DNA of 64,000 bases from a virus. Lineage: Duplodnaviria; Caudoviricetes. Positions 25,010 through 64,000 of this stretch are shown piece after piece; the first letter of the stretch is position 1, and every line of letters starts with the position of its first letter. The translations under genes were made by a program, and so were the position numbers. Under the pieces are notes generated by a model. That model did not search any database and had not been told where the DNA came from. It saw nothing but the letters and a program-made list of their open reading frames with translations. The stretch spans positions 1 to 64,000 of the IMG/VR virus record IMGVR_UViG_3300025372_000010; one strand, written 5' to 3'.

Positions 25010-25024
25010 ATAGATCTTTTTTCC

Positions 25025-25040: not shown

Positions 25041-25065
25041 ACTTATACACCCAAAACATATAAAT

Positions 25066-26912: not shown

Positions 26913-26913
26913 A

Positions 26914-27195: not shown

Positions 27196-27215
27196 TAATA
27201 TAAAACTTTTTAGAT

Positions 27216-27881: not shown

Positions 27882-28304
27882 ATGTCTTGTTCTACATTCA
27901 AAACGCTTAATATATCATTTGTAGCTCCATCTATTGCTCCAGCTAATGGATACATAATTCGTTGGAGAATTGTTGGAGATACCACTTGGAATGCACCAGC
28001 TAATCAATATGGTAATCCTATACAAGTGGCTAATATACCATCTTGTTATAATATTGAAGGATTTATTCAAGCAGATTGTGGTAACGGAAATACAGGTAAT
28101 CCTGTAAACTTTGCAATCACTTCTTCTAGTAGTGCATGTTGGCAGTTTACTTTACAATCTACTGCTAATTATACATATACTCCTTGTGGATCTAATATAC
28201 CTCAAACAATAACAAATACATCTGGATCACCTCAAACTATATGTGCTATTGATGGTACTGTATCTGGAGGTAGCTATTCTAGAACTGTTTCTTGTAATGT
28301 ATAA
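27882..28304 (+). CDS. FN3-like Cys-rich protein
   Basis: ISF....APANGY.IRWR..W..IQADCG, then a Y.YTPC...ICA module. Confidence 0.65.
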   Translation: MSCSTFKTLNISFVAPSIAPANGYIIRWRIVGDTTWNAPANQYGNPIQVANIPSCYNIEGFIQADCGNGNTGNPVNFAITSSSSACWQFTLQSTANYTYTPCGSNIPQTITNTSGSPQTICAIDGTVSGGSYSRTVSCNV

Positions 28305-37956: not shown

Positions 37957-37957
37957 A

Positions 37958-45904: not shown

Positions 45905-45959
45905 ACCTAGTAAGTTTAGCTTTAAACTTTAAATATTTTTCGTTATATTATTAATGTAC
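45902..45959 (+). promoter_or_regulatory. Putative late promoter/operator, copy 5
   Basis: TAAAC-CTAGTAA-GTTTA (45902) and GTTATATTATTAATGTAC (45942). Confidence 0.65.
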
Positions 45960-45962
45960 CCT

Positions 45963-48900
45963 ATGGCACAATACATCCCATACATACAAGATCAAGCTCC
46001 TGAACCAGTGTTATACCAACCTGATTGGGGGATGATTGGAACTGCCTTACAAAAGAAGGATTATCAGTACCAACAAGGAATTAATCAACTTCGTCAGGGG
46101 TATGGTTCGATTCTTAATGCACCTCTATCTAACTCAGAGAATATTCCTGTAAGAGATCAGTATGTAAAACAAGCTCAAGAAAGTCTTAAGAAGATTTCTG
46201 GAGCTGATCTTTCTTTACCAGAAAATGTACAAGCAGCTCAAAATATCTTCGAGCCTTTCTGGAATGACCCCTTTATTGTAAAAGATGCTAACTACACTCA
46301 ATGGTATCAGTCTCAACAACAAAAGCTTGCTAGTTGGAGAGATTCTCAAGATCCAAAGGTTAGATCTATGTACAGTCCTGTAATGGAACAATACCTTAAT
46401 CAAGGTTTAAATAAGCTACAAACTGCTAAGAGAACTCCTGAAGGCTTTTCTCGTATAGAAAGAAGAGAAGCCATTCCTTTTACTAATGTACAAGAATGGT
46501 TACAAGATAGAGCTAAAGATCAAGGTTTAAAGATTGATTGGACAGATGTATCTCCAGATGGTGCTTACCTTATAGATACTACCAATGGTCAAAAGACTCA
46601 GAAGAAGTTTTCTTCTTGGGCTGAGGGTATGATGGGTGATAACTTTAACGAGCAGTTTAAGATTGAAGGTAGAGTGAGAGCTGAGAATGTAGAAAACTAT
46701 ATTAAATCTCAACCTGCTAATGCTGGATTACCTCCTGAACAAATCAGAGCTAAAGTTGCTGATTATGTTATAACTAATCTTAAAAACGGATATGAGCAAA
46801 GAGTAGGAAAGATTGATAGTCAAATCTCTAGTATAGATAACTTATTAAAATCTTACCCTGCAAATATTAGTGATCCTGCACAAGCTCAAAAAGCTCAGCA
46901 GTTATTAGATGAAAGAAGACAGTTAGCTAGTTTAAAAGATAGTGTAAGTTCTGAATACGGTGGTATAGAAGATCCCAATAGTCCTTTGTATAAACAAACT
47001 ATACAAAGTGTTTTACAAGATCCTACTAATTATTTTGGTACCTTATCTAAACAATCTACTATTAATAACTGGGCTACAGCAAGAGCTGAAGTAGAAAGCA
47101 GAACTATTAAAGAAAACTCTTCTTTCTTTAAAGCTCAAGATATAAAAGAAAAGTATGATAATCTTAACTTCCAAAAACAAAAGGAAGCAGATCTTAAAGA
47201 TTATAGAGATAAATTATTAAGTATTAAAGGTGCTGGTGGATTAAGAGGAGCTGGTGGAACTGGAGCTGGGGGTGGAGGTAAAATGAGTTTTACTTTAGAC
47301 AACGATGGTAATGTAGTTCCAGTGTTTGGTCCTGCTACAGAGGGAGAACAACTTTCTACAGGAGCTAGAGTTAAAGGTTTAGGCTCAACAGATATTACTA
47401 CAACTCCTAGTGCATATGATGTATTTATGAACTATCAAGGAGCTTTATTAGGTACTGCTCATGATAAGACATTTAATCCAGAAAGTGGAGCTATTCGTTT
47501 TTTAACTAATGCAGGATTATCTGATGATGATGTAATGCAAATCAGTTCTGGTCTTAAGAGACAACTTACTGATGGAGAAAACTTCTCATGGAATCCTAAA
47601 GAAGTAACTGCTTTAGATAAGTTAGCTAAATCTCAAGGGTTTAGTAAATATTGGAAAGATAGTAAAGTGAGTAATATCCAACAAGGTATTCTTAACTATG
47701 CTAAAGACTATGTGAAGCAAAAGCATGATAATAATATTGACTTTACAGATGATGATACAAAAGTGTTACAAAACTATTTAGAAGCTAAACAAGCTAATGA
47801 TATGTTTGTAGCTAATGAAGATGACAGACAAAATCTTATTAAGAATAGTATCTTAACTGATCCTAAAACTTATGGAAAGATTACTGTTGATAGAGATGGT
47901 AAAAAAGATCTTATACAGCAATCTGATGTACAAAAGTTCTTTAAAGATAATGGTATTAAAGTTATAGATAAGTGGTCTGTATCTAGCGATCCTGAAGAAA
48001 AGGTAAGCTTAAAAGATTTGTCTAGAGCTTTTATGCAAGGTAAAGTTAAGTTTTCTACAGCAAAGCTTGCTGATATGGTTGAGCAAAGAGCTACTATTGA
48101 TGGTACCACTTATGCTATATTAGGTAATGTAGAAGGAATCAAATCTAGATTCGGAAGCTCTGAGGATTTTTCTAATCTATATATGAAAGCTAATACAACT
48201 GTAGTTCCTCATCTTAAGTACTTTGAGAACAAAACAGCTCGTATGGGTACTGTATGGGGATTAAACTTAGATGATTATAATAAAGATCCTCAAGGATTCC
48301 AAATAGTAGAGGAGGCATTATTACCATCTAATCAGCTTAATATATATGCTCAAGATAAAAATGGTAATCAAACTGTAGTAGATAACGATACTCGTAACGC
48401 TATAAAAATGTTATTAGGTAGTCGTGAGAATATTAAGAAGTATTTAGGTAATGCTGACTACTACACACAAGGAGTTAATGGTAACCCAACTCTTTCTTTT
48501 AATATAAAAGAGTTGTCTTCATCTGATAAGAATAATATTGGTGGAGTAGATCTTAACAAGTTAAACACAGATGTGTATAAGATTGAAATAAGTCCTGAAG
48601 CTAAAGGTCCAAATTTACGTAACTTACCACAGAATAGCGGTAACTATGTTTATCAAAAGCTTTTGCAGGGTGAGTCTATGCACAGTGATGATATGTTAAA
48701 CTCTTATGGAATTAGTTATGATATAGTTCCAAATAATAATACAAATCCTACAGGAGGATCTGTTACATTTAAGTACAACTTAAGAACTAATAAACTAAAC
48801 CCTACTACAGGACAAATGGAAATAGCTACTGTTCCTATGCAAGAGCGTAAAGTATTCTCATTTGAAGATGTAACTCCTGATCAAGTGGTAGGAATGATCC

Positions 48901-49028
48901 ATAGTAATATAGTTCAGTTGATGATGGTTAATCAACAAGCTAGTAAGCAGTATGAACAACATCAAAAAAGTAGTAATGCTCCTAGCTTTAATCTTCAAGC
49001 AGAGCTTAATAAACTAGGTATAAAATAA
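45963..49028 (+). CDS. Ejected cargo protein (probable start ATG 45963)
   Basis: About 1020 aa, Cys-free; YQPDW...KD..YQQG, DLSLPEN..A..IF.PF..D N-terminus; Gly linker. ATG 45954 lies within the promoter motif. Confidence 0.75.
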   Translation: MAQYIPYIQDQAPEPVLYQPDWGMIGTALQKKDYQYQQGINQLRQGYGSILNAPLSNSENIPVRDQYVKQAQESLKKISGADLSLPENVQAAQNIFEPFWNDPFIVKDANYTQWYQSQQQKLASWRDSQDPKVRSMYSPVMEQYLNQGLNKLQTAKRTPEGFSRIERREAIPFTNVQEWLQDRAKDQGLKIDWTDVSPDGAYLIDTTNGQKTQKKFSSWAEGMMGDNFNEQFKIEGRVRAENVENYIKSQPANAGLPPEQIRAKVADYVITNLKNGYEQRVGKIDSQISSIDNLLKSYPANISDPAQAQKAQQLLDERRQLASLKDSVSSEYGGIEDPNSPLYKQTIQSVLQDPTNYFGTLSKQSTINNWATARAEVESRTIKENSSFFKAQDIKEKYDNLNFQKQKEADLKDYRDKLLSIKGAGGLRGAGGTGAGGGGKMSFTLDNDGNVVPVFGPATEGEQLSTGARVKGLGSTDITTTPSAYDVFMNYQGALLGTAHDKTFNPESGAIRFLTNAGLSDDDVMQISSGLKRQLTDGENFSWNPKEVTALDKLAKSQGFSKYWKDSKVSNIQQGILNYAKDYVKQKHDNNIDFTDDDTKVLQNYLEAKQANDMFVANEDDRQNLIKNSILTDPKTYGKITVDRDGKKDLIQQSDVQKFFKDNGIKVIDKWSVSSDPEEKVSLKDLSRAFMQGKVKFSTAKLADMVEQRATIDGTTYAILGNVEGIKSRFGSSEDFSNLYMKANTTVVPHLKYFENKTARMGTVWGLNLDDYNKDPQGFQIVEEALLPSNQLNIYAQDKNGNQTVVDNDTRNAIKMLLGSRENIKKYLGNADYYTQGVNGNPTLSFNIKELSSSDKNNIGGVDLNKLNTDVYKIEISPEAKGPNLRNLPQNSGNYVYQKLLQGESMHSDDMLNSYGISYDIVPNNNTNPTGGSVTFKYNLRTNKLNPTTGQMEIATVPMQERKVFSFEDVTPDQVVGMIHSNIVQLMMVNQQASKQYEQHQKSSNAPSFNLQAELNKLGIK

Positions 49029-49046: not shown

Positions 49047-52000
49047 ATGGATTCTCTTAACTTTTTAATGCCTGACAATATAAATACGGACAATCTTGTA
49101 CCTCAAGATAATCCGACAGGTAGTTTATTAGATATACTTCAAACTTCTGGCCCTGGTCCTTCACAGCCAATTACTTTTGATCCTATTAAAAGTTTTCAGT
49201 TTCCTTCTTCTCCAACTTCTGAAGCAGCCGCTGCACCATTATTTTTTGATGCTCAAAGAACTAATGTTGATAGATATACTAACTCAGCTTACTTTAAGCA
49301 GTTAGGTTTTAATCCTTTAGAAGGAAATGCTAATGAATACAAGTATGGCTCTATGCAAACATGGGGTGATACTATGGGTAATGCTTTAGGTGGAGCTTGG
49401 AAGTTAGGAGCTAATACATTTATACAAGGATGGGAAGGATGGGGTAATATGGCTAATGCATTGACCTCATGGGATAGTAGTAAGTTAGTAGGAAGTCCAG
49501 AACAATTATACCAAAGTAACCAAGAGCAGAATGCTATCATGAACAAGTATGCAATCTTTGCTACTCCTGAATCAGATGCTGGTGGTGTATTTAATCGTAA
49601 GTTTTTTGGTGATATGGTTCAGCAAACTGGATTTGCTCTTGGAACTATTGCTCAGTTTTTATCAGAAGAGCTTATAACATATGGTTTATCTACAGAGTTT
49701 TCATTAGCTAAACTTGGAATTAAAGCTCCATCTTGGTTAGGTAAAGTTGTTACTAAATCAGAGTTATTAGCTGATATGACTAAGCTGGGTGAAAATATCT
49801 ATAAGGATAGAACCTTTGCTGAGAAGTTTGTAGAGAATGCTAGAAAGTTTGTTCCTTTCTTAGAGACAGGAGAAGAGATGGCTAAGTATTCTAAAGCTGG
49901 TGCTGGTGCTGCTCAAATAGCAGCTATTGGCGTTGGTGGATTAAGAAGAACATTAGCTGAAGCTAATATGTCTTTTACAGAAGCTCGTATGGAAGCTGCT
50001 AACACTTATGGTGATCTTTACAATAAGTTATATGATGAAGAGGTTGATAAGACAGGAGAAGTACCATCTGGTGATAAGTTAGCTAGAATGAAAGAGATAG
50101 CAATGAAAGCATCTAGTGATAACTTCTTTGTTAACTCAGGAATCTTAATGCTATCTAATAGATTACAGTTTGATAATTTATTAGGCAAGTTTAGTTTTGG
50201 TAGAGAGATATTAGGAGAAGGTGGTGGGTTTGCAGAAGACATCTTAAAAGTTACTGGTAAGGTAGGAGAAAATGAAACAACTAAAGTGTACCAAAAAGGA
50301 TTGATGGGTACACCTGGATTATATGGTAAGATAGCAGAAGACTTTGGAAAAAAAGAAGCTGCTTGGCAAGTTGCTAAGAGCTTAGGAAAGCATGCATTCA
50401 AATGGGAAACTAGTGAGGGTCTTCAAGAGGTTTTCCAAGATTTAAGTAATCAGTCCTTACAAAACTACTACTATGATTTGTATCATGGTATAAAAGGAGC
50501 TGACTTTAGTCCTAGCTTAGAAAAAGCTTGGGCACAGGAGAATCAAGGTAACCAAGGGTTAAAGACTTTCTTAATGGGAGCTTTAACTGGAAGCTTGATA
50601 TCTCCTATTGACTTTGCTATAGGCAGAGCCAAAACTTATGGAATGTCAACAGCTGAACAAAGACAGACAAGAGAAGCTGATGTAAAAGATGCTGTTGAAA
50701 TGCTTAATGGTTTTTATGAGAATCCAAACCGTTATCTTAATGAGCATATTGCTAATGTAAAGTTACAAGATCATGTAGCTAAAACTATGGATGAAGCTAT
50801 TGCTAATAGAGATAAATATGTGTTTAATAACTTTAGAGATAGTGGATTTGCTAAGATGGTTTCAGCTGCTATAAAGACAGACATGTATGAGTCTGTTATG
50901 AGCACATTAAGAAACTACGGTGAGAGTATGACTGACCAAGACTTCAAAGAAGCTTTTGGTATGGAGAAGAATAAATATAATATAGATTCTATAAAAGGAT
51001 TCTTTGATAAGGTTGCAAGTAGTGTTGAAGAGTTTCATAAGAACTGGAAGACATTACGAGATAGATATGCTGACTCTGTTATACCAGAAATATATAAAGA
51101 TGGCACTCCTGAAAAGAAGATTAGTTTAGCTGCTAAAAGAGCATTAGATGATGCTATTGAAATACTAGCTACTAACTCTTATAAAGGACAGAATGCTATT
51201 GTCAGAGCTACTGATTTACAAACTCAAATGGCAGCAACTCCAACTATTGGAGGATCATTAGAGAATGCATTTAGAATATTAGGTCATGCAGGTGAGACAG
51301 CTCAAGAAGCATACTTATTAGATCAAGAGATAACATCTTTAGAAAGTGCTGATAAGATTGATAGAGAAACTCGTAAGCTTATTACAGCTAAGAAAAAGCA
51401 ATTAGCTGCTCTTACTGATTGGTTAAAGAATCAAGATGCTCTAGAAAAGATGGGTATTGAAGAGAAACGTAGATTCAATAAAGCTAGAAAGTCTTTTAGA
51501 GACTATGTTAATTCTAAGAATGAGCAAGCTAAGCTAGATGTATCTATAAAGAATGATGACTTTGAGGATATCTATAAAAACTTCTTAGACTATATTCAAC
51601 TTAATAGTGATGCTAAACAGTATGTAGATGCATACAATGTTCTAGCTAATCCAACTAAGTTTATCTTAATGCATGAGCGTATGCTTGATGCTATATTAAA
51701 AACTGAAGAGACTTATAAGAAAGAACATGAGGCTGAGATTAAAGGTGAAAAACCTGAAGCTGAAGAAAAAACTGGTAGCTTAGCTGATTTAATGGAGAAA
51801 GGATTAACAGTTGATGAAGCTAATCCAGAGAAAGTAGAGAAAGAAGAAGCTGAGAAAAAGAATGTAGATAAGCAAGCTTTAGAGACTGAGTTACACGATG
51901 CATATAGAACATATGCACAAGAAGCTTATGAGCAAGGTAATACTCCAGCTAAACCATCTGAATGGATTCGTTTTGGTGAAACTGCTAGAAAGATATTAAC

Positions 52001-54593
52001 TAAATATGGTGCAACTAAAGAAGATATCTATCATAATATAAATAATGTAACTGAAGATAATTATAATGATATATCTTTTAGTTATGGAGAACCTATTGCT
52101 GCAGCTCAACCTGCTCCTTTAGAAACTACTGAAGATCAAACTGCAGGTGGTACTAATATTGAGCAAGTAGATCCTACAGCAGCTGAAACTCCTGCTGAGC
52201 AAGCTGTCACTACAGAATTACCTGATAATGTGATTGCTGGTATGGATACTGGTGCTCAACAAAATCAAGGAGCTAGTCAGTCAGTAGTTATTGGTAAACA
52301 AACAATCAATGTAGGTGACAGAATCACTGGTAATCCTGGTGGTGATTTAACTGTTACAGGTATTAATTCTAAAGGTGATGTTACATTAGCTAATGATGAA
52401 ACTCAAGTTACACTTCCTAAAGATGACTTAGCTCAACTAATGGCTAATGGATATAGTCAGATAGTTAAAGCTGCAACAAAGACAACAGGCAAAGCTACTC
52501 CTAAAAAGACTACAGCTCCTGTAGTTAAGAAACCTACTTTTGAAAATGGTGAGATAAACAATGTAGAGCAGACTCGTGCTGCTATGCTTAATCAAGCTAA
52601 TAAGAAAGGTGGTGTTGATGATCAGTTAGAAAAAGAAACTCCTGGTGTAGTAGAAGGTAAGAAAGTAATTAATGGTGCTACTAAGATTAACAATCGCACT
52701 GAAGACTTTACAGCTACTACAGATAATAAAGGTAAAACTATTCGTCAGATTACTGGTGTAAATAGTAACTACCCAATGATTATGGCTACTAGTCGTATTA
52801 ATATGGGTACTGGTATTACATTAAGAGTAGATACTAGCTTAGCTAACTATGATGAGTATGAGTATATTAATACTAATAATGTAACTAAGCGTTCTAAAGA
52901 AGATTTCTTTGAGAATGGTAAAGTAAAACAGTCAGCTGTAGAATCTTTTCCAATTGCTATCTATACTAACTATAATGGTCAAGAAGTAAAATTAGGTTAC
53001 TTACCTACTGTTGAATGGGTAAATGCAAAGTATCCTAATGGATCTACGGTGAATGTCGTAGATAAAACTTATGATAAAGATGGTAATGAACAAGATAATC
53101 TTGGACCTAACTTAGCTCAGTTGAGAAAGATTAGACAAGATTTGATGAATGGGTTTAATACTGCAGGTAAGACTGAATGGACAGCTATAGTAGATAATAA
53201 ATCTGATGGTAATCTTAGAACTATATCTGGTGTTAATAAAGTAGCAGATGTAGTGAGCCCAGGTACACAGATTGGTATTATAAAAAATGGTGTTGTTTAT
53301 ACAGGTAAGAATGTAGAAGCTACAGGTCAGATTATACTTCCAAGTGAAGTATCTACTACTATAGAGAACAAGAATACAGAAGGCTGGCCAGTTGTATTGA
53401 TTAATACTCCTACTGGTAAAAGATTAGCAAGCTGGGTTAGTGTTCCAACATTGAATAAAGAACATCAAGATCTTATTTTAAATGCTTGGAGTGCGTTCCA
53501 TTTATTAAACAATAATGCTAAAGCTAACGAGCCACATGATACTAAGTCTAAAGCTTATGAAATAGCTAGTGCAATATATGAAGCATATGGGGCTAAGCTT
53601 GCAGTAGATGAACAACCTAACTTTAAGCTTTTACAAGACTATGTTAATGACTACATCACTTTTACAGGTGGTAAGAATGATGAGAAGAATGGTTATAAAA
53701 AGTACGATCCATTGAAGCCAGGATCATCTTTATTGACTATATTGCCAAATGGTACTTTGATTACATGGGTAGTTCAAACTGGTGTTGAAGCTAACGATAA
53801 AGTGTTAATGACTGATCCGTCCAGATTGACTGATGAGAATAAGAACAAGTTCTATAACTTAGCAGATCAAGTGCACTATAATATTAAGTTTAGTGATAAG
53901 AATAATAATGGTATCAACTCTGATAGTAAGATGAGATTTTTAAGTATGGTGGGTGATTCATTAATTAAGTCTGAGCCTATGACATATAATGAGCATGTAT
54001 CTAATCTATTAGAGACAAACATAGAGCCAGGTATTCCTTTAGATCCTAAGCAACCAGATGGAGAAAGAGTTTATTTCTCTAACCCAGTATTGAATTTTAG
54101 CTTTACAGAGCCTACAGAAACTAAAGTTACCACTCAAAAAGAAAATGCTGCTGTTCCAGCTGAAACTACTCTTGTTACTACTAATATAGAATCTAAGAAA
54201 GCTGATATAGAAAGAAGAAGACAAGAGCATATTGACTTAATTGAGCATAATGAAAATGCAGATGGTAGTGAAGAATCACAAGCATATGACACATCTTGGA
54301 GTAAAAAAAATGAATATGAATACTTTTCTGGTAAAACAAAGAAAGAAGTAGTAAATAAAATAAATGCTAAGTATGATGCTGAACTAGCTGCTTTAGAAGG
54401 TGGTAAAACCAAAACTGTAAAGAGCTTAGCTGATGAATTATTAAATATGGACTTTGGTGAAGGATTAACTGACTTTGGTAACTTTGATCAAGGCGTGATT
54501 GATGGAGATCTTCCAGGAGATAAGAAATCAATAGCAACTAAAGTGAATGATATAGTAAACGATAAAGAAATAGATAAAAACTGTAACGGATAA
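49047..54593 (+). CDS. Large ejected cargo protein upstream of the virion RNAP, with putative membrane-inserting N-terminal helices
   Basis: 1848 aa; Gly/Ala-rich hydrophobic helices (GFALGTIAQFL, EARMEA, SEGLQE, FLMGALTG); the only Cys seen is third from the C-terminus. Confidence 0.8.
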   Translation: MDSLNFLMPDNINTDNLVPQDNPTGSLLDILQTSGPGPSQPITFDPIKSFQFPSSPTSEAAAAPLFFDAQRTNVDRYTNSAYFKQLGFNPLEGNANEYKYGSMQTWGDTMGNALGGAWKLGANTFIQGWEGWGNMANALTSWDSSKLVGSPEQLYQSNQEQNAIMNKYAIFATPESDAGGVFNRKFFGDMVQQTGFALGTIAQFLSEELITYGLSTEFSLAKLGIKAPSWLGKVVTKSELLADMTKLGENIYKDRTFAEKFVENARKFVPFLETGEEMAKYSKAGAGAAQIAAIGVGGLRRTLAEANMSFTEARMEAANTYGDLYNKLYDEEVDKTGEVPSGDKLARMKEIAMKASSDNFFVNSGILMLSNRLQFDNLLGKFSFGREILGEGGGFAEDILKVTGKVGENETTKVYQKGLMGTPGLYGKIAEDFGKKEAAWQVAKSLGKHAFKWETSEGLQEVFQDLSNQSLQNYYYDLYHGIKGADFSPSLEKAWAQENQGNQGLKTFLMGALTGSLISPIDFAIGRAKTYGMSTAEQRQTREADVKDAVEMLNGFYENPNRYLNEHIANVKLQDHVAKTMDEAIANRDKYVFNNFRDSGFAKMVSAAIKTDMYESVMSTLRNYGESMTDQDFKEAFGMEKNKYNIDSIKGFFDKVASSVEEFHKNWKTLRDRYADSVIPEIYKDGTPEKKISLAAKRALDDAIEILATNSYKGQNAIVRATDLQTQMAATPTIGGSLENAFRILGHAGETAQEAYLLDQEITSLESADKIDRETRKLITAKKKQLAALTDWLKNQDALEKMGIEEKRRFNKARKSFRDYVNSKNEQAKLDVSIKNDDFEDIYKNFLDYIQLNSDAKQYVDAYNVLANPTKFILMHERMLDAILKTEETYKKEHEAEIKGEKPEAEEKTGSLADLMEKGLTVDEANPEKVEKEEAEKKNVDKQALETELHDAYRTYAQEAYEQGNTPAKPSEWIRFGETARKILTKYGATKEDIYHNINNVTEDNYNDISFSYGEPIAAAQPAPLETTEDQTAGGTNIEQVDPTAAETPAEQAVTTELPDNVIAGMDTGAQQNQGASQSVVIGKQTINVGDRITGNPGGDLTVTGINSKGDVTLANDETQVTLPKDDLAQLMANGYSQIVKAATKTTGKATPKKTTAPVVKKPTFENGEINNVEQTRAAMLNQANKKGGVDDQLEKETPGVVEGKKVINGATKINNRTEDFTATTDNKGKTIRQITGVNSNYPMIMATSRINMGTGITLRVDTSLANYDEYEYINTNNVTKRSKEDFFENGKVKQSAVESFPIAIYTNYNGQEVKLGYLPTVEWVNAKYPNGSTVNVVDKTYDKDGNEQDNLGPNLAQLRKIRQDLMNGFNTAGKTEWTAIVDNKSDGNLRTISGVNKVADVVSPGTQIGIIKNGVVYTGKNVEATGQIILPSEVSTTIENKNTEGWPVVLINTPTGKRLASWVSVPTLNKEHQDLILNAWSAFHLLNNNAKANEPHDTKSKAYEIASAIYEAYGAKLAVDEQPNFKLLQDYVNDYITFTGGKNDEKNGYKKYDPLKPGSSLLTILPNGTLITWVVQTGVEANDKVLMTDPSRLTDENKNKFYNLADQVHYNIKFSDKNNNGINSDSKMRFLSMVGDSLIKSEPMTYNEHVSNLLETNIEPGIPLDPKQPDGERVYFSNPVLNFSFTEPTETKVTTQKENAAVPAETTLVTTNIESKKADIERRRQEHIDLIEHNENADGSEESQAYDTSWSKKNEYEYFSGKTKKEVVNKINAKYDAELAALEGGKTKTVKSLADELLNMDFGEGLTDFGNFDQGVIDGDLPGDKKSIATKVNDIVNDKEIDKNCNG

Positions 54594-54596
54594 CAT

Positions 54597-57500
54597 ATGT
54601 CTTGTATATACACTATAAATGGTAAGCAGTATTCTGACTCTGAGGTTAAACAAGTCTTCAGTAGTATCCTAGCTGTTCCTGGTAATGAAAACTTATCGAA
54701 TGAGGAACTAGTAGCTAAGATTACTGAGCTTAGTAAAGATAGATTTGTTGATGTAAATCTATTTAGCCCATATCAAGAATCAGCTTACACTAACATCATC
54801 TTTTCTGAGGTTGTTGACCAACTTGGTGTTTTAAAACCTAAGATGGAGATTAAACAATCTGCAGGTAAAGTATTTGGTGATACTTATAGTCGTTTCAAGA
54901 ATGAAGCTGCTAAGTTTAATGCTATCTCTGAAAAGATAACATCAGAAGAAGCTTACAATCAGTTTAAGCAAGTTGAGGGTGTAGCTGCAAAGTTTCCTGA
55001 GATTGCTGCTTTAAACTATAATCAGTTCAAGAGTATGGTTGATCAGTTCAATCATATTGTAAATGAAGAGAACTGGAAGAAGTTTACTCAACTAGCTGAG
55101 CAAAAGCTTAGACAGCTTGGGTTAACTATTAAAGATGGTAATATTGTAGAAAAGAAGTTTGATGCTACAGAGATTGCTAAGAGATTAGAAGAGGATCAGA
55201 ATGATGAGAATGAACCAGAGTATGAAGATTCTGAAAGAGAAATCAATGAGTCATACGAAGATGGTCGTGCATTTAGATTATCTCCTAAAGATACTGCTAG
55301 CTATCGTGTAAAGTTATTCTTATCTACTATTCCTAACTACGAGAGAAACATCTTTGGTAAGAAAGACTTTGTGTCTATGGACCAAGTGTTTGAAGACTTG
55401 TTGCAAACAGCTGCAACTCTTCCTGTAGTAAACTATAAAACCTTTACAGAAGCTTTATTATCTAAAGCTGAGGGTAAACCTTATTTACATAATGTAGTAG
55501 GTAAGTTAGATAGATTACAAAAAGACGGTAACGTAAAGCTTCGTAATGAAATCATTACAGTATTTAATAAAGCCTTTACTGACCATGTGCTTGTTTTATG
55601 GAACCCTTCTGAAGGTGGTGTTAAAGTTAAAGTGATTAGCTCTAACCGCAATAGTATAATCCGCCAAATCAAGCAAGACTGGATTGAAGCTCAGAAAAGA
55701 TCTGCTATTATCTCTACAGATACTATTGGTGATCTAGTAATAAATAAAGAGAAGGTTAAAGAGTTATATGATTCTTTAAAAGAAGCTAATAAGTCTAAAG
55801 ATATCACTGATAAGAAAGCTTGGGTAGCTGAGTTCTTTAAATCAGTAGGTATTGACTTTGATGCAAAGATGATTGATGCATTAGTAAAGAGTGCTAATAA
55901 CGGTTTCTTCAAGTATGTACGTAGTGCTAACTTTGCTGCTATGTTCAGACCTAATGGTGTGTTTGATAACATCATGAAGACTTATTCTAAAGAGGGTGAT
56001 GGTAAATCAGATAACCGCTATGAAGATTCTAATAATGCTATGATCCATGAGCGTGCATTTGACTATCTAGCTCAGATCTTCTTTGACTTTAATGGTAATA
56101 AATATCAGACTGGTACTTTCCAGAATGGTGAGAATAAAACTATCTACTCATACATCCAACCTAGTTATTTAGAGACAGTTAAGAAAAAGCTTAATAATGG
56201 TGACGGTTATTTAAAACGTCTATCAGAAGCTTCTTTCTCTAAATCATCTGAGGTAGTTGCTCAGTTATTAAATAACCTTACAGAGAATAGTAATAACTTT
56301 GTATATCGTATTAGATATGCAGATAGCTTAAAGAATGACACTGCAGAGAAAGCAGGTATAGTTCGTAAGCGTATGAGCCGTAAAGAAATGTTATTTGATT
56401 CATTAGTTAAGTATATGAACTCTGGTAAAAATACAGGGTTGTATAACATGTTTACATTGTCTGATAAGACAGTTACGCCTGTTATAGAAATGACTAAAAC
56501 TAAGCTTGATCCAACATTTGATATCTTATTACGTCCTTCTAAGAATACAACTGTAAGAACTAGCTTTGATTTCAAAGATGGTTTTGCAGATAAATTATAC
56601 ACCCTAGCTAAGTCTGAAATAGATCGTATGGTTGACTATGCTAATAATGCTAATAAAGCAGGATTAGGTATAAACAACTTTGATAAGTCTAGTCAGATCT
56701 TTTATTTATTCCCAGCTCTTAATAACAAAGAGGATGCTGATCTTAAATCTATTGTAGATTCTATACAAGCGGGTAATCAGCCATCTTTAGCAGATGAGAA
56801 CTATATCAAGAAAGTATTAGTGGATGTGTTTAAAAATGATGTAATGAAGTCATTTAGAACTCTTACTGATATAGGATTGATTAAGAAGTCTGAAGCTTTA
56901 GATGAGAATGATAAGAAGACTATCTTATTAAACTATGATCAATTAGATAAAGACTATCTAGCTCAATATTCTAATCTAACAGATAAGCAAAAAGGAGTTA
57001 TGATAATATCTGAATTTAAGTATAATAACTTAAAAGCTCAGATTAATAGTTTACAAGTGTTAGGTGCAGATCCTGCATTATTTTACAAGACTAAGATTGG
57101 AAAAGCTAAAGAAGCTCTTACTACTTCTGATGTTAACTCTATAGTAAAAACTACTATGGATGAATTCAGTAAGCGTGCTGCAATGTTTATTGCACCAGGA
57201 GCTCAAGGTACATTTGAGTGGACTGACTTAAATGGTCGTCCTGTTGATAGAACAAACTATGATATAGTTACTATCAAAGATGTGGTTAAGAATGTAGGTG
57301 GTTTTGAGAAAGTTAATATTGCAGATGCTCAGGAGTTAGTAACTCTACAAGAGCATATTGATAGATTAATGTCTGAAGGTCGTATTGACTTAGAAGACTG
57401 GCAGTCTATTACTGATAAAATAGAAAAGAATAAAGGTAAGTTTTATGAGCTTAGCGATAAAGAAAAGCAGATTGCTTTACAACCAGCTAAGCCTGTATAT

Positions 57501-60500
57501 AGTTCTAATACTTTTGTAGATGGATTTAGTAGAATAGACTATATTAAATCTTCTACATACCCAATGATCCCTGAAGTAATTCAAGGAACTGAGTTAGATA
57601 AAGTTAGAGCTTGGATGGAGAATAATAATATTAGCTCAGCACCTTTTGAGTCTGCTAAAAAGACTGGTATTCCTGCAGCTCCATTAGAGTTGTTTGATGC
57701 TAATGATAACTTTGTAGAGCCTACTAAAGAAAGATTAGCTGAAGTGAGACAAACTCTTAACAGAGAAGGTCTTCGTACACAGCAAGAGATCCCAGCTCAA
57801 AAAGATGAGATCAACGTAGTTTCTCAGATGGACCGTCAATTATTTGAGGGTTTACTTGGTATTAAAGGATTTATGTTTGATGCTCATAGTTACACTGGCT
57901 CTGAACTTAAAAAGCTATCAGAAGCTATTCGTATTGCTTTCTTCTATAAGAACCAGCAGGTTTTGGCTGATAGATTAAATATAAAGATCACTGATAACAA
58001 TGTAGTATTTAAAGATCAAAAAGCTTTAGCTGATTTATTAAAAGAAGAAGCTTTAGATAGAGATTTCTCTGCTAATGATATTAAAGCCATCCAAACTAAT
58101 GAGGATGGTAATCTTGTTATTCCTATCTACTTAATGGCTAAGGGTAAGAGATTTGAAGGATTAGTAACAAGTATTTTCTCTAAGTTAGTAAAGCTTAAAG
58201 TGCCTGGAACTAGTTTAGTACAGGTGTCTGGTGTTGGTACCAAAGTAAAAGAGTCTGAGCTTACTGATAAAGTAAAGAATCAAATCATCTATACAGATGC
58301 TTATGATGCTTCTAAAGGATTACAATACATTCGTAAAGAAGCTACAACAGTTGATGATAAAGGTAATGTAAAGAAAGGTAAGGCAGTTCAACCTGCACAA
58401 GTATTTGTTTCTCAATATCTTAAAGACAAAGAAGGAAACTTAATAGACTTAACTAAGTATGTTAAGAAAGATGCTCAAGGTAGAATGATATTAGATAGTA
58501 ATAAGATCGATAAAGACTTATTACAGTTTATTGGTGCACGTATTCCTAACCAAGGTCATTCATCAATGTTACCTATAGAAGTGGCAGGGTTCTTACCTAG
58601 CTTTATGGAAAACACTGTAGTAGTGCCGGACGGTGTCACATCACAAATGGGATCTGACTTTGACGTAGATAAGTTATACTCTTATATTAGTTCTATAGAG
58701 AATGTTACTGATGATAAGATCTCTAGTCAGAAGTTTGATAGCTCAATCTATAAGAATGACTACGAATCTTTAATGAGTGCTTCAGAAGCTGAGTTATTAC
58801 AAATGTACAAAGAAATACATTGGTCAGTGTTAACTCATCCGGATGTATTTGATAAGATCACTCGATCTACAGAGTTTCCAGATATTAGTAAAGAGATTGA
58901 AGTATTTGAGAAAGCAGGTTTATTAGAAGATAAGGTGTCTGCATTGCCTATGGACTTTGAAGCTCAGATTAAAACCTTTTTAGATAACCGTAGTGGTAAA
59001 TCTGGTACAGGTATATTTGCTCAGATGATTTCATTCTTAGCTGAGCACCAAGATAAAGATATCAAGTTAAAGTCTTTCTTAGATAACAATGATAATCCTA
59101 TACAAGAGTCAGTTAAGTTCTTAAAAGACAACGGTGAAATATTAAAGCTATTTAGATTTACGGCTGAGGGTAGAAGTGAGACTGAAAATGGTGAGCGTTC
59201 TAAGACTGATAATACATCTATATTCCTTTCTGAATCAGTGGATAATGCTAAGAATAAGAACTTAGATAAGTTCAACTTAACTGTTGAAGCTATGAACGCA
59301 GTGCGTGCTGTGATAGGATTAAGTTCAGAAACTGGAGAGATTGCTGATATTAGATATGTGACTAGATTGATGCCACAACCTATTATCAAGAACTACTTAA
59401 ATGAAATAGAGTTATCTCGAGATAGCTTTAGCGATAAGTACACTAACAAGTTTGATATTGCTACAAAGATGATTAACACTTATAATAGTTATTTATCTGA
59501 TGTAGCTGAAATAGATATAGATCAAAGATTATTCTCTCCTGCTACATTACTAAAAGCTTTAATAGATGGGAAAGACTTCGGTGAGAAGTTAATCAATGAT
59601 GCAAAGAATGGTGTATTATTAAATAGTCAGCAACAAGCTCAGCTTAATGAGTATATAAATAATCAAGTATCTATCTTAAAACTTTATACTCAATTAGATA
59701 ATATTGGTTGGGCAATGGGTAAGTTGATGACAGGTACCAATGTTACAACAGCAGGTATTGGGTCAACTTTATTTGCTGTAGCAGATAAGTTAAGACAAGT
59801 AAAAACTGTTGCTCTTAATACTGTATTCCAAAACACTGAACAACTATTAGGTGATATTGCTTATGATGGTACGATTATAAATCCTACTAGTCAAGCAGGA
59901 CATGCTATGAATGTAGCTCTATCTTTTGGTAGAGATGTATTATCTAAGCTTGCACCTATTCACTTTGGTGCATCGTTTGACCAATTGAGAGACAAAGTAG
60001 TTAGAGAAAGATTTAAAGATTCTAATATATCCAACTGGGGTAAGACTAAGTATATGGAGTTAAGTGAAGACTTAATGAAATCTGCATATGCTTACTTATT
60101 AACTAACCCTGAGTTAGGAATGGTTCAAGATACTCAAAATGATCGCACACGTTTACTTTATGGAGCTAACGGTGAAAGATCTTTAGGTGAGCGTATTATA
60201 GCTCTTAAAGAACAGCTTAAAGATACTAACTACTTTATAAATAGATTACAAGTTACAGCTCCTATAAATAAAGCTGCAGATCCTTATTTAGTTAAATATA
60301 GATCTCCATTCAGTCAAGATATAGATGAGCAGGCTAACAATAAAGGATTCTTAGAGTTAATATTAAGCGGTGATAAAAACCAGATTGATATTGCTCGTGA
60401 TCTAGTTACTTATGCATATCTTACTGGATATGATCAAGGATCTTCTTCTTATTTGAAGTTTATCCCTGTAGAGTACTTAATGTTAAACCAGAAGTTTACT

Positions 60501-62474
60501 AACGGTTTAAAAGACTTTGCTTCTACTTTTGATGACATGGGTACCTTCTATAAGCAGTTTATTCAGAACAATCCTGATAGAGCTCTTAATATGGGTAAGA
60601 AGTTATTTGAGGATGTCTTCTTTAAAAAGATAGACAGTGATGATGTAATCCATATAGCAGATGATAAATTAGCGGATGCTTTATTAGTACAAATGCCTAA
60701 AGAGGAAGGAAACGGATATAAGTATGCTGATTACATTAAGGGTATAAAGTATGTAGGTGATCAAAGAAGAGTATATTTATTTGAAAGAGTTGTAGGCAGT
60801 AGAGAAGATGACAGTAGATCCTATAGACGTATACCTACATTAGGTAACGGAACTATATCTGAGTATGTATATGATTCTGAAGATGTTAAGTCTATCTTCT
60901 TTAATAACCTTACTCCTACTCAAAAGATGGATACTCTATCTACTAATCCAGAGAATCCATTCAGAAAGATTAAGATATACAATGCTCAATACTTTGACTT
61001 GAGATACTTAATCCCAATGGGAGATACCGCTACACAGTTTATTGGTCTAGACATAAGCAATGCTAGTAAGACTACTAAGACTGCATTAGAAGCTTATAAA
61101 GATAAATCTAATACAGGTGAGTATGCCCCAACAGATAAAGTTATTATCTCTGGTAATACATTATTACAAACTGTAAAACCTAAGGAAGGAACTACTAAGT
61201 TAGATGTGTCTGATATTAATTCAGCTTATTCTATATTAGAGTCAGTATTTAATGATCACTATGCTCCAATGATAGATAAAGCTATTAAAGCAGGTGCTGA
61301 CTTTATGGTAGGTAGTTTAACAGGTATGGAAGAAGTTGCTAAGAAGTATTTAAGAAACGAAGGCTTAGCAGAAGATACTGATGATAAAGGAGTTACAACA
61401 TTTAAGAACCCTAAGAGCAGTGAAAAGATAGAAGCTCAACCTACAGAGATTAATGATTCTGATGTACCAACTATTAGTTTATTTGGTATAGGCGGTGAGC
61501 AAACTGCAAGTGAAGAAGAGTCTGCTGGTGCTTTTGGTTTTGAGTTTGCTAATGATGATGTGGCACCACAAGAAGCTACTCATATGATTACTGAAGGAGT
61601 AGAGAAAGCAGGACCTGTACAAACAGACGCTGATATAGTTAACAATTATACTAATGATCCTAGTAAACCTAGTACACTTAAGTCAGTGTTAAGTAAAGTT
61701 GGTACAAATACAGATAATGAGTTCTATAAGACACTAGTATCCGTATTTAGAAAAGCAGGCTTCCCTGATATAAATGTTAGTTTCTCTGAGGCTATTAATA
61801 ATCCTGGAGAGTATAATTCAATAAATGGTTCTATAATTATTAATCCAGCTCTTGCTATATCAGACAATACTAGATTAAACCGTCAGCAAAATTTAGAGTC
61901 TACTATTATACACGAAGCACTTCATGCATACATTTCAGATATCCTATCTAAGATTAGCTCTAATGATAAGAGTCTCACTGAAGCTCAAAGAGTATTTGGA
62001 ACTGCTTTGAAACAATTGTATAAAACTACTGTAGAAAAAGTAATGGATGACCCGCAGCATTCTGATAGATTAGTTGCTACTAATAATATGATCAAAGAAA
62101 AAGGTTATATTAGTACTGAAGATAAAAGCATGTACTATGGCTTAACTTCTGTGGATGAGTTTGCTAGTATGTTATTTACTAACCCAACCTTCCAGCAGTT
62201 TATGAATACTACAATAGTACAGGAGACAGGAAAGCTTTCTGTAATAGATAGATTCAAAGCTTTATTAGCTAAATTACTTAAGAGCTTAGCTAAGAGCTTA
62301 AATATTGTGACAGAAGGATCTGCTTTAGAACAAGGAGTGAATGACTTATTTAATCTTATTAGTGTAAGTCAAGAGAAAGCTGGTGGTGAAACATCTGCAA
62401 AAAATCAGTTATCTTTGTTCAGCATGTCTACAAGACAGATGGAAAACTATACCTTAGAAAATCAATGTAAATAA
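54597..62474 (+). CDS. Virion-packaged single-chain two-barrel RNA polymerase with C-terminal zincin domain
   Basis: RIPNQGHSS (about 58539) and QMGSDFDVDKL (DFDVD at 58656-58670), KP.Y..KSS, QQE.P and VDNAK are crAss-like vRNAP motifs; HEALH at 61911. Confidence 0.93.
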   Translation: MSCIYTINGKQYSDSEVKQVFSSILAVPGNENLSNEELVAKITELSKDRFVDVNLFSPYQESAYTNIIFSEVVDQLGVLKPKMEIKQSAGKVFGDTYSRFKNEAAKFNAISEKITSEEAYNQFKQVEGVAAKFPEIAALNYNQFKSMVDQFNHIVNEENWKKFTQLAEQKLRQLGLTIKDGNIVEKKFDATEIAKRLEEDQNDENEPEYEDSEREINESYEDGRAFRLSPKDTASYRVKLFLSTIPNYERNIFGKKDFVSMDQVFEDLLQTAATLPVVNYKTFTEALLSKAEGKPYLHNVVGKLDRLQKDGNVKLRNEIITVFNKAFTDHVLVLWNPSEGGVKVKVISSNRNSIIRQIKQDWIEAQKRSAIISTDTIGDLVINKEKVKELYDSLKEANKSKDITDKKAWVAEFFKSVGIDFDAKMIDALVKSANNGFFKYVRSANFAAMFRPNGVFDNIMKTYSKEGDGKSDNRYEDSNNAMIHERAFDYLAQIFFDFNGNKYQTGTFQNGENKTIYSYIQPSYLETVKKKLNNGDGYLKRLSEASFSKSSEVVAQLLNNLTENSNNFVYRIRYADSLKNDTAEKAGIVRKRMSRKEMLFDSLVKYMNSGKNTGLYNMFTLSDKTVTPVIEMTKTKLDPTFDILLRPSKNTTVRTSFDFKDGFADKLYTLAKSEIDRMVDYANNANKAGLGINNFDKSSQIFYLFPALNNKEDADLKSIVDSIQAGNQPSLADENYIKKVLVDVFKNDVMKSFRTLTDIGLIKKSEALDENDKKTILLNYDQLDKDYLAQYSNLTDKQKGVMIISEFKYNNLKAQINSLQVLGADPALFYKTKIGKAKEALTTSDVNSIVKTTMDEFSKRAAMFIAPGAQGTFEWTDLNGRPVDRTNYDIVTIKDVVKNVGGFEKVNIADAQELVTLQEHIDRLMSEGRIDLEDWQSITDKIEKNKGKFYELSDKEKQIALQPAKPVYSSNTFVDGFSRIDYIKSSTYPMIPEVIQGTELDKVRAWMENNNISSAPFESAKKTGIPAAPLELFDANDNFVEPTKERLAEVRQTLNREGLRTQQEIPAQKDEINVVSQMDRQLFEGLLGIKGFMFDAHSYTGSELKKLSEAIRIAFFYKNQQVLADRLNIKITDNNVVFKDQKALADLLKEEALDRDFSANDIKAIQTNEDGNLVIPIYLMAKGKRFEGLVTSIFSKLVKLKVPGTSLVQVSGVGTKVKESELTDKVKNQIIYTDAYDASKGLQYIRKEATTVDDKGNVKKGKAVQPAQVFVSQYLKDKEGNLIDLTKYVKKDAQGRMILDSNKIDKDLLQFIGARIPNQGHSSMLPIEVAGFLPSFMENTVVVPDGVTSQMGSDFDVDKLYSYISSIENVTDDKISSQKFDSSIYKNDYESLMSASEAELLQMYKEIHWSVLTHPDVFDKITRSTEFPDISKEIEVFEKAGLLEDKVSALPMDFEAQIKTFLDNRSGKSGTGIFAQMISFLAEHQDKDIKLKSFLDNNDNPIQESVKFLKDNGEILKLFRFTAEGRSETENGERSKTDNTSIFLSESVDNAKNKNLDKFNLTVEAMNAVRAVIGLSSETGEIADIRYVTRLMPQPIIKNYLNEIELSRDSFSDKYTNKFDIATKMINTYNSYLSDVAEIDIDQRLFSPATLLKALIDGKDFGEKLINDAKNGVLLNSQQQAQLNEYINNQVSILKLYTQLDNIGWAMGKLMTGTNVTTAGIGSTLFAVADKLRQVKTVALNTVFQNTEQLLGDIAYDGTIINPTSQAGHAMNVALSFGRDVLSKLAPIHFGASFDQLRDKVVRERFKDSNISNWGKTKYMELSEDLMKSAYAYLLTNPELGMVQDTQNDRTRLLYGANGERSLGERIIALKEQLKDTNYFINRLQVTAPINKAADPYLVKYRSPFSQDIDEQANNKGFLELILSGDKNQIDIARDLVTYAYLTGYDQGSSSYLKFIPVEYLMLNQKFTNGLKDFASTFDDMGTFYKQFIQNNPDRALNMGKKLFEDVFFKKIDSDDVIHIADDKLADALLVQMPKEEGNGYKYADYIKGIKYVGDQRRVYLFERVVGSREDDSRSYRRIPTLGNGTISEYVYDSEDVKSIFFNNLTPTQKMDTLSTNPENPFRKIKIYNAQYFDLRYLIPMGDTATQFIGLDISNASKTTKTALEAYKDKSNTGEYAPTDKVIISGNTLLQTVKPKEGTTKLDVSDINSAYSILESVFNDHYAPMIDKAIKAGADFMVGSLTGMEEVAKKYLRNEGLAEDTDDKGVTTFKNPKSSEKIEAQPTEINDSDVPTISLFGIGGEQTASEEESAGAFGFEFANDDVAPQEATHMITEGVEKAGPVQTDADIVNNYTNDPSKPSTLKSVLSKVGTNTDNEFYKTLVSVFRKAGFPDINVSFSEAINNPGEYNSINGSIIINPALAISDNTRLNRQQNLESTIIHEALHAYISDILSKISSNDKSLTEAQRVFGTALKQLYKTTVEKVMDDPQHSDRLVATNNMIKEKGYISTEDKSMYYGLTSVDEFASMLFTNPTFQQFMNTTIVQETGKLSVIDRFKALLAKLLKSLAKSLNIVTEGSALEQGVNDLFNLISVSQEKAGGETSAKNQLSLFSMSTRQMENYTLENQCK

Positions 62475-62476
62475 TT

Positions 62477-64000
62477 ATGGCTTGTTACGTTAAAAAGAAT
62501 GACCTTGGTTTAATCACAGAAGTAAGACTTCCTGATGGAAAAACTATGTCTAAAGCTTACTATGACATCTTACAACATGTTCAAGAAGGTATTCCTTCTG
62601 AGCACATTATGAATACTTTAGCTTCTTTACGTGAGTATGAAGGTAAATATATCTCTGATACAAAGAGTAATGATCAACGAGCTCTTGGATTATACATGCA
62701 TTTATATGACCAGTCTTTTAGACAATGGTATGGTGATTGGACAACTGAGCCAAAGATTAATAATGATGCTACTATTACTAGAGCAGATGGAGAGACTCGT
62801 TCTATCTATGACTTTGGTAAATATAAGAATAATGCAAGCGAGACTTTATATTCCGCTAGAACTGCAGCAACAGGTAGATTACTTAAACAAGTAGATTTAA
62901 CTGTTAAGGAGTTAAGAGACCGTATTAAGCTAGCTATTGATGCCCGTGAGAAATCTAAGCTTAACGCTGACTACACTAAAGATCAGAAGATCGAGAGAGA
63001 AAGATACTATAACAAGATTATAAAAGTACTTAACCAACAAGTTGAGACTCTTATAAAGAATAATAATGTTGACTATGTGTTAGCTCAGGGATTGTCTGAT
63101 ATGAAAGTCATTAAGAACATATTATCAGGTCCTATAGTCAGTCTAACAGAGATCAGATTTATGGATGACATCGTTCAAGCTTGGACAAATATTGAAACTG
63201 TACTAGGTATACAGTCAATTGATGATCTACCAGAAGATAACGAAGAGCAAAAGAATAGAAAGGAAAGAGCTACACAAATATTAAATAATGCTGATTTTGC
63301 TAAAAAAAGTATTGCTAACTTAGCTAAGAAGCAAATTGTTGAAGCTTATAACAACTCTATGCCTGAGGGTCAAGAGATCACAGTAAAAGACTTAAATGCA
63401 TTTAAAGATGTATCTATGTGGAAGTCTTTAGCTAGAGATATCACAACTGTAGATAATAAGTCTGTAGCTTATTTAGCTAAGATTATCAATGAAGCTAATC
63501 TAAAGATAACTAAAGAGCACAACAGAAACTATGAGTCTATAGATAAGGCATATGATGATATCAAGAATCACCCAGAGATTGTTAAGAATGGATTTAACAT
63601 ATTCATCAAAGAACAAAAGGGAGCTCTTGGTACAAGTACTTTAGGATTGACTAATAGATTCTCTCAGGTGTTTTATGATACTATGAGAAATCAAGGAGCC
63701 ATCTTAAATGCTAAAATTGAGGCTGCCGGGGAAGATAAAGAAGCAGTAAAAGCTGCTTACAAAACTTATAATGATTGGGTGGCTAAGAATACTGTGTTAT
63801 TTAACTCAGCTCCTTTCTTAAACACTGAAGCTTATACAGATGCACAAAGAATCGAAGTAGTAAATGATCTTAAGAAACAAGGATTCACTGAAGATGAGAT
63901 TGGCGATATGATTCGTGAAGCAGGTAAGAGATACCAAGATTATAATGAGTATGCTGAAAAGTTCAGAACTACTTTATATCTAGATATTATGTCTGGTGAC
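62477..64000 (+). CDS. Large cargo protein downstream of vRNAP (3'-truncated; not in ORF track)
   Basis: ATG 62477 gives MACYVKKNDLG...FRQWYGDW...; the frame appears open to the window end (508 codons). Confidence 0.85.
   Translation, partial: MACYVKKNDLGLITEVRLPDGKTMSKAYYDILQHVQEGIPSEHIMNTLASLREYEGKYISDTKSNDQRALGLYMHLYDQSFRQWYGDWTTEPKINNDATITRADGETRSIYDFGKYKNNASETLYSARTAATGRLLKQVDLTVKELRDRIKLAIDAREKSKLNADYTKDQKIERERYYNKIIKVLNQQVETLIKNNNVDYVLAQGLSDMKVIKNILSGPIVSLTEIRFMDDIVQAWTNIETVLGIQSIDDLPEDNEEQKNRKERATQILNNADFAKKSIANLAKKQIVEAYNNSMPEGQEITVKDLNAFKDVSMWKSLARDITTVDNKSVAYLAKIINEANLKITKEHNRNYESIDKAYDDIKNHPEIVKNGFNIFIKEQKGALGTSTLGLTNRFSQVFYDTMRNQGAILNAKIEAAGEDKEAVKAAYKTYNDWVAKNTVLFNSAPFLNTEAYTDAQRIEVVNDLKKQGFTEDEIGDMIREAGKRYQDYNEYAEKFRTTLYLDIMSGD

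Follow-up and report, generated by a model that had tools for sequence, protein, structure and literature searches.

Why should proteins that otherwise avoid cysteine keep single cysteines at ends that face each other across gene junctions? The question is raised by an uncultured tailed phage (Caudoviricetes) known from IMG/VR virus record IMGVR_UViG_3300025372_000010, a contig of 112,862 bp of which the first 64 kb (64,000 nucleotides, here called the window) were analyzed. Its cargo block, at 37958-66262, encodes seven proteins. The last three, which we call A, B (a predicted virion RNA polymerase, or RNAP, of the crAss type), and C, carry all of the block's cysteines. The pattern is conserved in homologs, is coupled to gene fission and fusion, and has a definite polarity. 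We propose that A, B, and C would be linked by interchain disulfides in a single thread standing in for a polyprotein, a reading to which we assign a probability of about 0.65. The formation of this bond in Crassvirales, its timing, and its part in ejection are inferences.

Cysteine positions in the cargo block

Cysteine is almost absent from the block. The seven proteins contain 4 cysteines in 9,396 residues (0.043%), compared to 1.0% in the other 28 open reading frames (ORFs) of the window; at the latter rate about 94 would be expected (Poisson P ~4e-35). All four lie no more than three residues from a terminus, for which P is ~4e-10 if four cysteines are placed uniformly. The preliminary description of this DNA had reported one cysteine in A, two in B (residue 3 and the second from last), and one in the MACYV start of C, with no other in the complete ORFs of the block; both statements were borne out on the ORFs (Table 1). 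Every large gene as far as 66262 is on the plus strand, and genes past that position are on the minus strand; C is the last gene of the plus-strand block and is cut by the end of the window. The four upstream cargo proteins, which have neither cysteines nor tipped junctions, are outside the A-B-C chain.

Table 1. Features of the cargo block; negative residue numbers are counted from the C-terminus
Feature	Position	Strand	Description
Protein A, first chain member	49047..54593	+	1848 aa; sole Cys is residue 1846 (-3)
TGT codon, C-terminal Cys of A	54582..54584	+	end ...KNCNG, then stop
Protein B, crAss-type two-barrel virion RNAP (predicted)	54597..62474	+	2625 aa; only Cys 3 and 2624 (-2)
TGT codon, N-terminal Cys of B	54603..54605	+	MSCIYTINGK tip module
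TGT codon, C-terminal Cys of B	62466..62468	+	end ...ENQCK, then stop
Protein C	62477..64000 in window, to 66262 in genome	+	1261 aa; sole Cys is residue 3
TGT codon, N-terminal Cys of C	62483..62485	+	MACYVKKN tip module
DFDVD catalytic motif of RNAP (in B)	58656..58670	+	GSDFDVDK at 58653-58676
HEALH (HExxH, zincin-like) motif, C-terminal part of B	61911..61925	+	H2439, E2440, H2443 invariant
Upstream cargo ORF	37958-41005	+	1015 aa; zero Cys
Upstream cargo ORF	41022-42596	+	~524 aa; zero Cys
Upstream cargo ORF	42605-45904	+	1099 aa; zero Cys
Upstream cargo ORF	45954-49028	+	1024 aa; zero Cys

One of the upstream ORFs was listed as 37895-41005 with a single cysteine, which lies upstream of the first ATG (37958), where the ORF overlaps the gene before it. 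Starting from the GTG at 37895 entails a 62-nt overlap with that 1531-aa gene, and the ATG at 37958 stands directly after its stop codon; the GTG start is probably wrong, and the ATG start removes this protein's only cysteine. At the A-B junction, the two genes share a frame, with a single codon separating the stop of A from the start of B (TAA CAT ATG, 54591-54599), although this shared frame is probably meaningless because the B-C junction is not in frame.

Identity of the three proteins

B matches PDB ID 6VR4 (6vr4_A), the solved two-barrel RNAP of phi14:2 (gp66), over residues 191-1367 in a phmmer search of the PDB (E = 1.6e-20), and its tblastn matches are virion structural proteins of Flavobacterium FpV phages (FpV4), Cellulophaga phage phi14:2, and Bacteroides phage crAss001. 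Its only match among the PHROGs is phrog_16227 (E = 5.8e-45). No Pfam family was found for B at E values up to 0.01, hence no match to a T7-like single-subunit RNAP domain. The aspartates of the catalytic DxDxD motif (D1354, D1356, and D1358) are invariant in 28 homologs. B thus belongs, on sequence similarity and its catalytic motif, to the crAss-type two-barrel virion RNAPs. It also carries an HExxH motif; for phi14:2, published work assigns the zincin domain to a neighboring protein.

The Pfam and PHROGs family searches returned no family for A, C, or the upstream cargo proteins (for a phosphatase domain in one of the latter, see below). Packaging and ejection of A, B, and C in this uncultured phage are probable, given their position in the late-gene block and their depletion in cysteine.

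Conservation and polarity in homologs

A search of 5.8 billion proteins yielded 96 homologs of B, 1,896-4,576 aa in length and 21-63% identical. A cysteine is present in the first 8 residues of 79 of these and in the last 15 residues of 78. Overall, this family of 336,313 residues has 197 cysteines, 157 of them terminal and only 40 internal. In the A family, 43 of 47 members have a cysteine within the last 15 residues and none has one at the N-terminus (0/47); in the C family, Cys 3 is present in 32 of 33 members and a C-terminal cysteine in none (0/33). The polarity is strict, in that the outer ends of the chain, the N-terminus of A and the C-terminus of C, never carry cysteine. The only invariant cysteine columns of alignments A2 and A3 are C3 and C2624 of B (A2, 27 homologs) and C3 of C. 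A first scan of IMG/VR that used the N-terminal half of C as the query found no relative, and a scan with the B alignment succeeded.

One candidate, intramolecular N-to-C cyclization of B, was rejected: A and C each have a single cysteine, and many B homologs are tipped at one end only, matching their gene architecture.

Many B homologs (P0016-P0096) have added domains, among them AAA_30/AAA_19 helicase, NADAR/DUF1768, ART-PolyVal, SprT-like, 2OG-Fe(II) oxygenase, and RNase H domains. These proteins are still nearly free of cysteine, suggesting that varied effector domains are delivered together with the polymerase. Another homolog (P0083), 4130 aa long and with zero cysteines, comes from a 66-kb contig labeled Acinetobacter sp. 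at NCBI, and may represent a crAss-like phage outside the Bacteroidota or a binning artifact.

Split and fused gene architectures

Scanning IMG/VR with a profile yielded 78 loci, each taken with 10-kb flanks, and gene architectures were compared over 82 loci. The loci represent the 80 best matches from a single scan and are not phylogenetically independent of one another; ORFs were called with translation table 11 from the first ATG, so that recoded stops or frameshifts can look like splits. Four architectures were seen. Where A, B, and C are all separate, there are cysteine tips at both junctions. Where A and B are fused (3,600-5,500 aa) and C is separate, the fusion has no N-terminal cysteine and the pair is found at the remaining junction. 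Where A is separate and B and C are fused, the pair is at the A junction and the fusion has no C-terminal cysteine. Finally, in seven complete proteins of 4,799-6,647 aa, A, B, and C are all fused and there are zero cysteines. In the fused forms, the B and C of the window both map to a single ORF (phmmer), and in the A-B fusions the A-homologous sequence precedes B.

At the A-B junction, 24 loci are split with cysteines and 43 are fused without them, compared to 3 that are fused with cysteines and 1 that is split without; the corresponding numbers at the B-C junction are 53 and 21, compared to 2 and 3. The three loci scored as fused with cysteines at A-B are split at a different site, and the two at B-C (L014 and L028) were misclassified, with a B lengthened by extra domains. 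One of the B-C junctions scored as split without cysteines (L079) has no C gene, and its B correspondingly lacks the C-terminal cysteine. Seemingly internal cysteines that looked like exceptions are in fact at positions -7 to -15. A comparison of cysteine positions in split and fused variants was the check that the preliminary description had named beforehand, and it came out in favor of the idea, with the pair present at split junctions and gone at fused ones in ~80 loci. Lack of conservation of the terminal cysteines, the outcome it had named as speaking against the idea, was not what we observed, since the pattern is kept down to 21% identity.

On the tree of the RNAP core, the architecture changed at least 10 times at A-B and at least 9 times at B-C. 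Well-supported branches provide 6 independent pairs for A-B and 3 for B-C, with the cysteine state concordant in 4 and ~3 of them, respectively. The opposite cysteine change occurs in none of the A-B pairs and only in occasional pairings at B-C.

Cultured and gut phages

The RNAP blocks of phi14:2 and crAss001 consist of proteins homologous to those of the window, with the same cysteine pattern, and in both phages all three proteins have been detected in virions by mass spectrometry. In phi14:2, gp078, gp077, and gp076 (GenBank tags), annotated from virion tandem mass spectrometry (MS/MS), are proteins of 1797 aa with Cys -1, 2180 aa with Cys 3 and -2, and 1421 aa with Cys 3. In crAss001 the chain is gp47-gp50-gp49, with Cys -3 facing Cys 5 and Cys -9 facing Cys 5: gp47 (A) and gp49 (C) have these as their sole cysteines, and gp50 (B) has one internal cysteine in addition to its two terminal ones. 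The phage of the window is distant from both of these cultured phages (22-28% identity in B). Unlike the window, crAss001 has its A gene on the strand opposite to that of B and C.

Other phages show partial versions of the chain. FpV4 has an A-B fusion of 4287 aa with a single cysteine at -2, followed by a protein of 1596 aa with Cys 3. The A homologs of crAss002 and of a Carjivirus end in Cys -2. Their annotated B-C ORFs, L088:12803-25540 (crAss002 gp33) and L090:13807-26082 (the Carjivirus RNAP fusion), contain an in-frame M-S-C downstream of the annotated start, by about 32 and about 21 codons, respectively. Initiation there would give Cys 3, and the annotated starts were probably miscalled.

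The virion proteomics of phi14:2 and crAss001, which report three separate products, also bear on whether the cysteines are nucleophiles in a processing or ligation reaction (peptide ligation or a thioester intermediate, perhaps via the HExxH domain) that leaves no stable tether. Such chemistry would suit the fused forms, which show that a continuous chain is functional, as well as the invariant HExxH near the C-terminus of B and the predominance of Ala, Ser, or Gly at residue 2, which would permit removal of Met. It is hard to reconcile with the separate products, with a cysteine that is not at position 1 and whose distance to the ends varies, and with the Pfam and PHROGs searches, which assigned none of the three proteins a Hint/intein, sortase, or other ligase-like domain; we regard it as very unlikely. 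Split inteins and protein trans-splicing were rejected as a candidate, as the Pfam and PHROGs searches returned no Hint or intein family and the cysteines are 1-15 residues from the ends with no domain between.

A feature of the proteins

Do the cysteines instead reflect chance, or a nucleotide feature of the junctions (a start-site motif, for instance, or translational coupling)? Both junctions of the window do read TGT..TAA..ATG.KCT.TGT. Across 65 dereplicated junction pairs, however, both cysteine codons are used (TGT in 54 and 57, TGC in 11 and 8), the position of the C-terminal cysteine varies from -1 to -15 (mode -2) and that of the N-terminal one from 3 to 5, and the spacer between the genes ranges from -8 to +667 nt. 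The opposite strands of A and B/C in crAss001 indicate that the pair is not an mRNA motif. With the pattern conserved to 21% identity and the two P values given above for the window, an origin in chance or in the nucleotide sequence is scarcely credible, and selection appears, from the sequences compared, to act on the protein and not on the nucleotide sequence.

The pair is also kept where other genes have been inserted at the junction. In one locus (L050), a homing endonuclease gene with GIY-YIG and NUMOD3 domains (L050:17782-18462) sits exactly between two halves that end in ...KKCN and start with MSC. In the related locus L054, the sequence is contiguous at the homing endonuclease site and there is no cysteine pair. 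In L038, T5orf172 and RepL-like ORFs lie between cysteine-tipped genes.

Precedents in other phages

A structural precedent is available from cyanophage A4 (Anabaena phage A-4L). In the cryo-electron microscopy (cryo-EM) structure of its pre-ejectosome inside the virion, Cys1715 of gp27 forms a disulfide with Cys5 of gp26, and the bond fixes a C-terminal helix of gp27 that is inserted in gp26 (PNAS 2025, PMC12002296). We found that these are the sole cysteines of gp27 (1717 aa, position -3) and gp26 (1114 aa, position 5), and that phages Pf-WMP3 and Pf-WMP4 keep the A4-type pair at ~25% identity. As in the window, therefore, the two are consecutive giant ejection proteins that are otherwise free of cysteine and have facing terminal cysteines. 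A4 has one such junction and no RNA polymerase in the chain, whereas the window has two junctions, and the A4 report describes the bond as a local stabilizer and gives no rule of gene fission or fusion (PMC12002296). Alignment with hhalign of the crass C family to A4 gp26 and of the B family to gp27 gave a probability of 0.1%, with no homology detected, and the resemblance thus appears to be one of mechanism and not of descent.

The N4-type virion RNAPs and their partner ejection proteins (N4 gp50 and DEV gp71-gp73) are almost free of cysteine, as the preliminary description had stated for ejected proteins such as the polymerase, and this has been ascribed to passage through an oxidizing periplasm (PMC11445570). 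Unlike the crass proteins, the ejected proteins of the Schitoviridae have no conserved terminal cysteines, no link between them has been proposed, and their RNAP is of the T7-like single-subunit type and not of the two-barrel type.

A preprint on the phi14:2 RNAP mentions phages in which the three proteins are fused, and is silent on cysteines. Our literature searches found no paper describing terminal cysteines or a tether in crass cargo proteins. The terminal-cysteine rule in Crassvirales appears to be undescribed in print, and one structural precedent of the same mechanism is known, in A4.

Tip modules

The N-terminal cysteine lies in recurring modules of ~20 residues. At least four types can be recognized: C-K-Y-T-Y-N-G-K-E-Y-T..E-L (type 1), C-P-N-I-N-S-P-E-W-K (type 2), C-S-H-L-A-P-N-G-E-K-S (type 3), and C-L-I-K-R....I..V.L-P-D-G-K-T (type 4). 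The CKYTYNGKEYT-type tip is on B in the clade of the window phage and on C in another clade. The C-terminal cysteine has the consensus NQC[KN] around it, and the N-terminal cysteine M[AS]C. Split and fused forms do not align in the 100-200 residues next to the junctions, and so the tips look like docking elements specific to split forms. A search for relics of the four N-terminal modules inside fused proteins recovered only an unrelated conserved motif of the RNAP core, near residue 1092 of B.

The conserved tips could also supply ligands for a metal ion (e.g., Zn or Fe) shared by the facing cysteines, with the other ligands coming from the tips or from a second copy of the pair. Such a reversible clasp fits the same covariation and polarity data as a disulfide and would work in a reducing cytoplasm. 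However, no His, Cys, or Asp is conserved beside either cysteine; a site with two cysteines is incomplete; a clasp would not survive unfolding for passage through the tail; and the only solved analog, that of A4, is a disulfide. We consider a metal clasp unlikely.

The proposed tether

In the disulfide tether that we favor, A, B, and C would be pieces of the one giant cysteine-free polyprotein that other crAss-like phages encode. At each split, short docking modules would hold the C-terminal cysteine of the upstream protein to the N-terminal cysteine of the downstream one, and the disulfide would form once the particle leaves the reducing cytoplasm. The product would be an almost linear A-S-S-B-S-S-C thread, with stubs just 1-4 residues long projecting at the joints. 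Because the cysteines are so close to the ends, such a chain could pass a channel that requires unfolding. In the tail channel the cargo would be at least partly unfolded and its non-covalent contacts would be lost, in which case nothing but a covalent link could keep the separately translated pieces connected, equimolar, and ordered; the disulfide would serve as the peptide bond does in fused forms. Keeping the rest of the block free of cysteine would mean that no wrong disulfides form, and in the host cytoplasm the bonds could be reduced. No thioredoxin gene was found in this genome.

The preliminary description had paired the C-terminal cysteine of protein n with the N-terminal cysteine of protein n+1 in a chain that follows gene order. 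The pairing gains strong support from the covariation and the polarity, and A4 provides a precedent of the same form. The gene order does not hold strictly, as the pair is kept in crAss001 with gp47 on the strand opposite to gp50 and gp49, which indicates an ordering of protein modules rather than of genes.

Several points weigh against the tether. The cytoplasm in which phages are assembled is reducing, and the habitat of gut phages is anaerobic. The B-C proteins of gut Intestiviridae contain 6-8 further cysteines. The A4 proteins have no detectable homology to the crass proteins, so that the precedent is an analogy, and the structural atlas of crAss001 left gp47, gp49, and gp50 unresolved and makes no mention of cysteine in them (PMC10172136). 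The test on independent pairs is underpowered on well-supported branches, with sign test p values of 0.125 for A-B and 0.25 for B-C taken separately. Co-folding of B 2306-2625 with C 1-320 provides weak support and returned no contacts: the median ipSAE was 0.56, compared to 0.01 for the best control, the runs shared at least 19% of their contacts, and the partner pLDDT was at least 76. In calibration, 58 of the 80 solved complexes scored 0.56 or higher, as did 2 of the 110 mismatched pairs, and the range up to 0.60 held just 7 of the 80 solved complexes together with both mismatches.

There are also loci that depart from the rule. In L030, the N-terminal cysteine of B has no tipped upstream partner; in L054, a C-type protein with Cys 4 follows a cysteine-free protein of 584 aa; and in L003, a 296-aa protein ends in cysteine and has no partner. 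L052 breaks the rule as well and is possibly frameshifted. In this locus (L052:7700-19150), A, B, and the ORFs after them have reading frames that overlap with ATG-less open stretches on their upstream side, and A ends in ...YCRC, which suggests frameshifts, either assembly errors or programmed ones, rather than a genuine exception.

The unpartnered tips of L003, L030, and L054 would be expected if terminal cysteines formed homodimers (A-A or C-C) or bonded the portal, the inner face of the capsid, or other cargo. The many intermolecular disulfides among crAss001 structural proteins point the same way; disulfides have been described in its tail, ring, hub, and portal-vertex proteins (PMC10172136), which counts in favor of the tether as well. 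Such bonds leave unexplained the joint loss of both cysteines on fusion, the untipped outer ends (0/47 and 0/33), and the two-piece phages with exactly one C-terminal and one N-terminal cysteine at their single junction, and the bond in A4 is heterotypic and head to tail. This makes homotypic or other partners quite unlikely. Taken with the alternatives discussed above, homotypic bonds, a metal clasp, ligation chemistry, and a nucleotide motif all fit the polarity, the covariation, and the crAss001 data less well than interchain disulfides do.

Other features of the window

The first protein of the cargo block (37958-41005) resembles crAss001 gp45. Its residues 781-924 match His_Phos_1 (histidine phosphatase; E = 4e-24), an enzyme domain within a cysteine-free cargo protein.

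Terminal cysteines, no more than three residues from an end, are also found in smaller late-gene proteins of no known family, at 9042-9590, 23272-24123, 25003-25566, 27216-27869, 27882-28304, and 28314-29291. Two of these proteins, which are probably structural, end in cysteine, others end in ...ECDN, ...SCNV, and ...WCNG, and two start with MSC. By analogy with the tail barrel and hubs of crAss001, these cysteines may form intermolecular structural disulfides. Three consecutive proteins at 25695-27869 have similar tails (SGVSATLI, SGVSATLA, and VSGTGTIV), and the first of them, with 20 cysteines in 405 aa (4.9%), is the most cysteine-rich protein of the window.

Implications

A broader reading, which we put forward only tentatively, is that the terminal cysteine pair serves as a general and portable patch, by which a giant ejected polyprotein can tolerate fission of its gene. 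A docking tip and a disulfide would then rescue any split, including splits at homing endonucleases such as that of L050. At least four tip modules would move between non-homologous proteins, and the same solution would have been reached in unrelated podophages (Saffermanviridae). If this is true, covalent "protein trains" would be a common principle of ejectosome delivery.

For annotation, the M-x-C rule corrects start codons, as in crAss002 gp33 and the Carjivirus RNAP fusion, and tipped ends show which neighbors belong to the injected chain. The modules of tip and cysteine are also candidates for tagging split proteins in engineering work.

Among human gut phages, Crassvirales are the most abundant. 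They are expected to deliver an RNA-polymerase cargo of ~700 kDa through a narrow tail ahead of the DNA, and the tether offers a concrete and cheaply testable mechanism for this. With it, what was one structural observation in a cyanophage becomes a comparative rule, and it would explain why split and fused gene architectures interchange so freely. It would also account for the order, the stoichiometry, and the connection of unfolded cargo during ejection.

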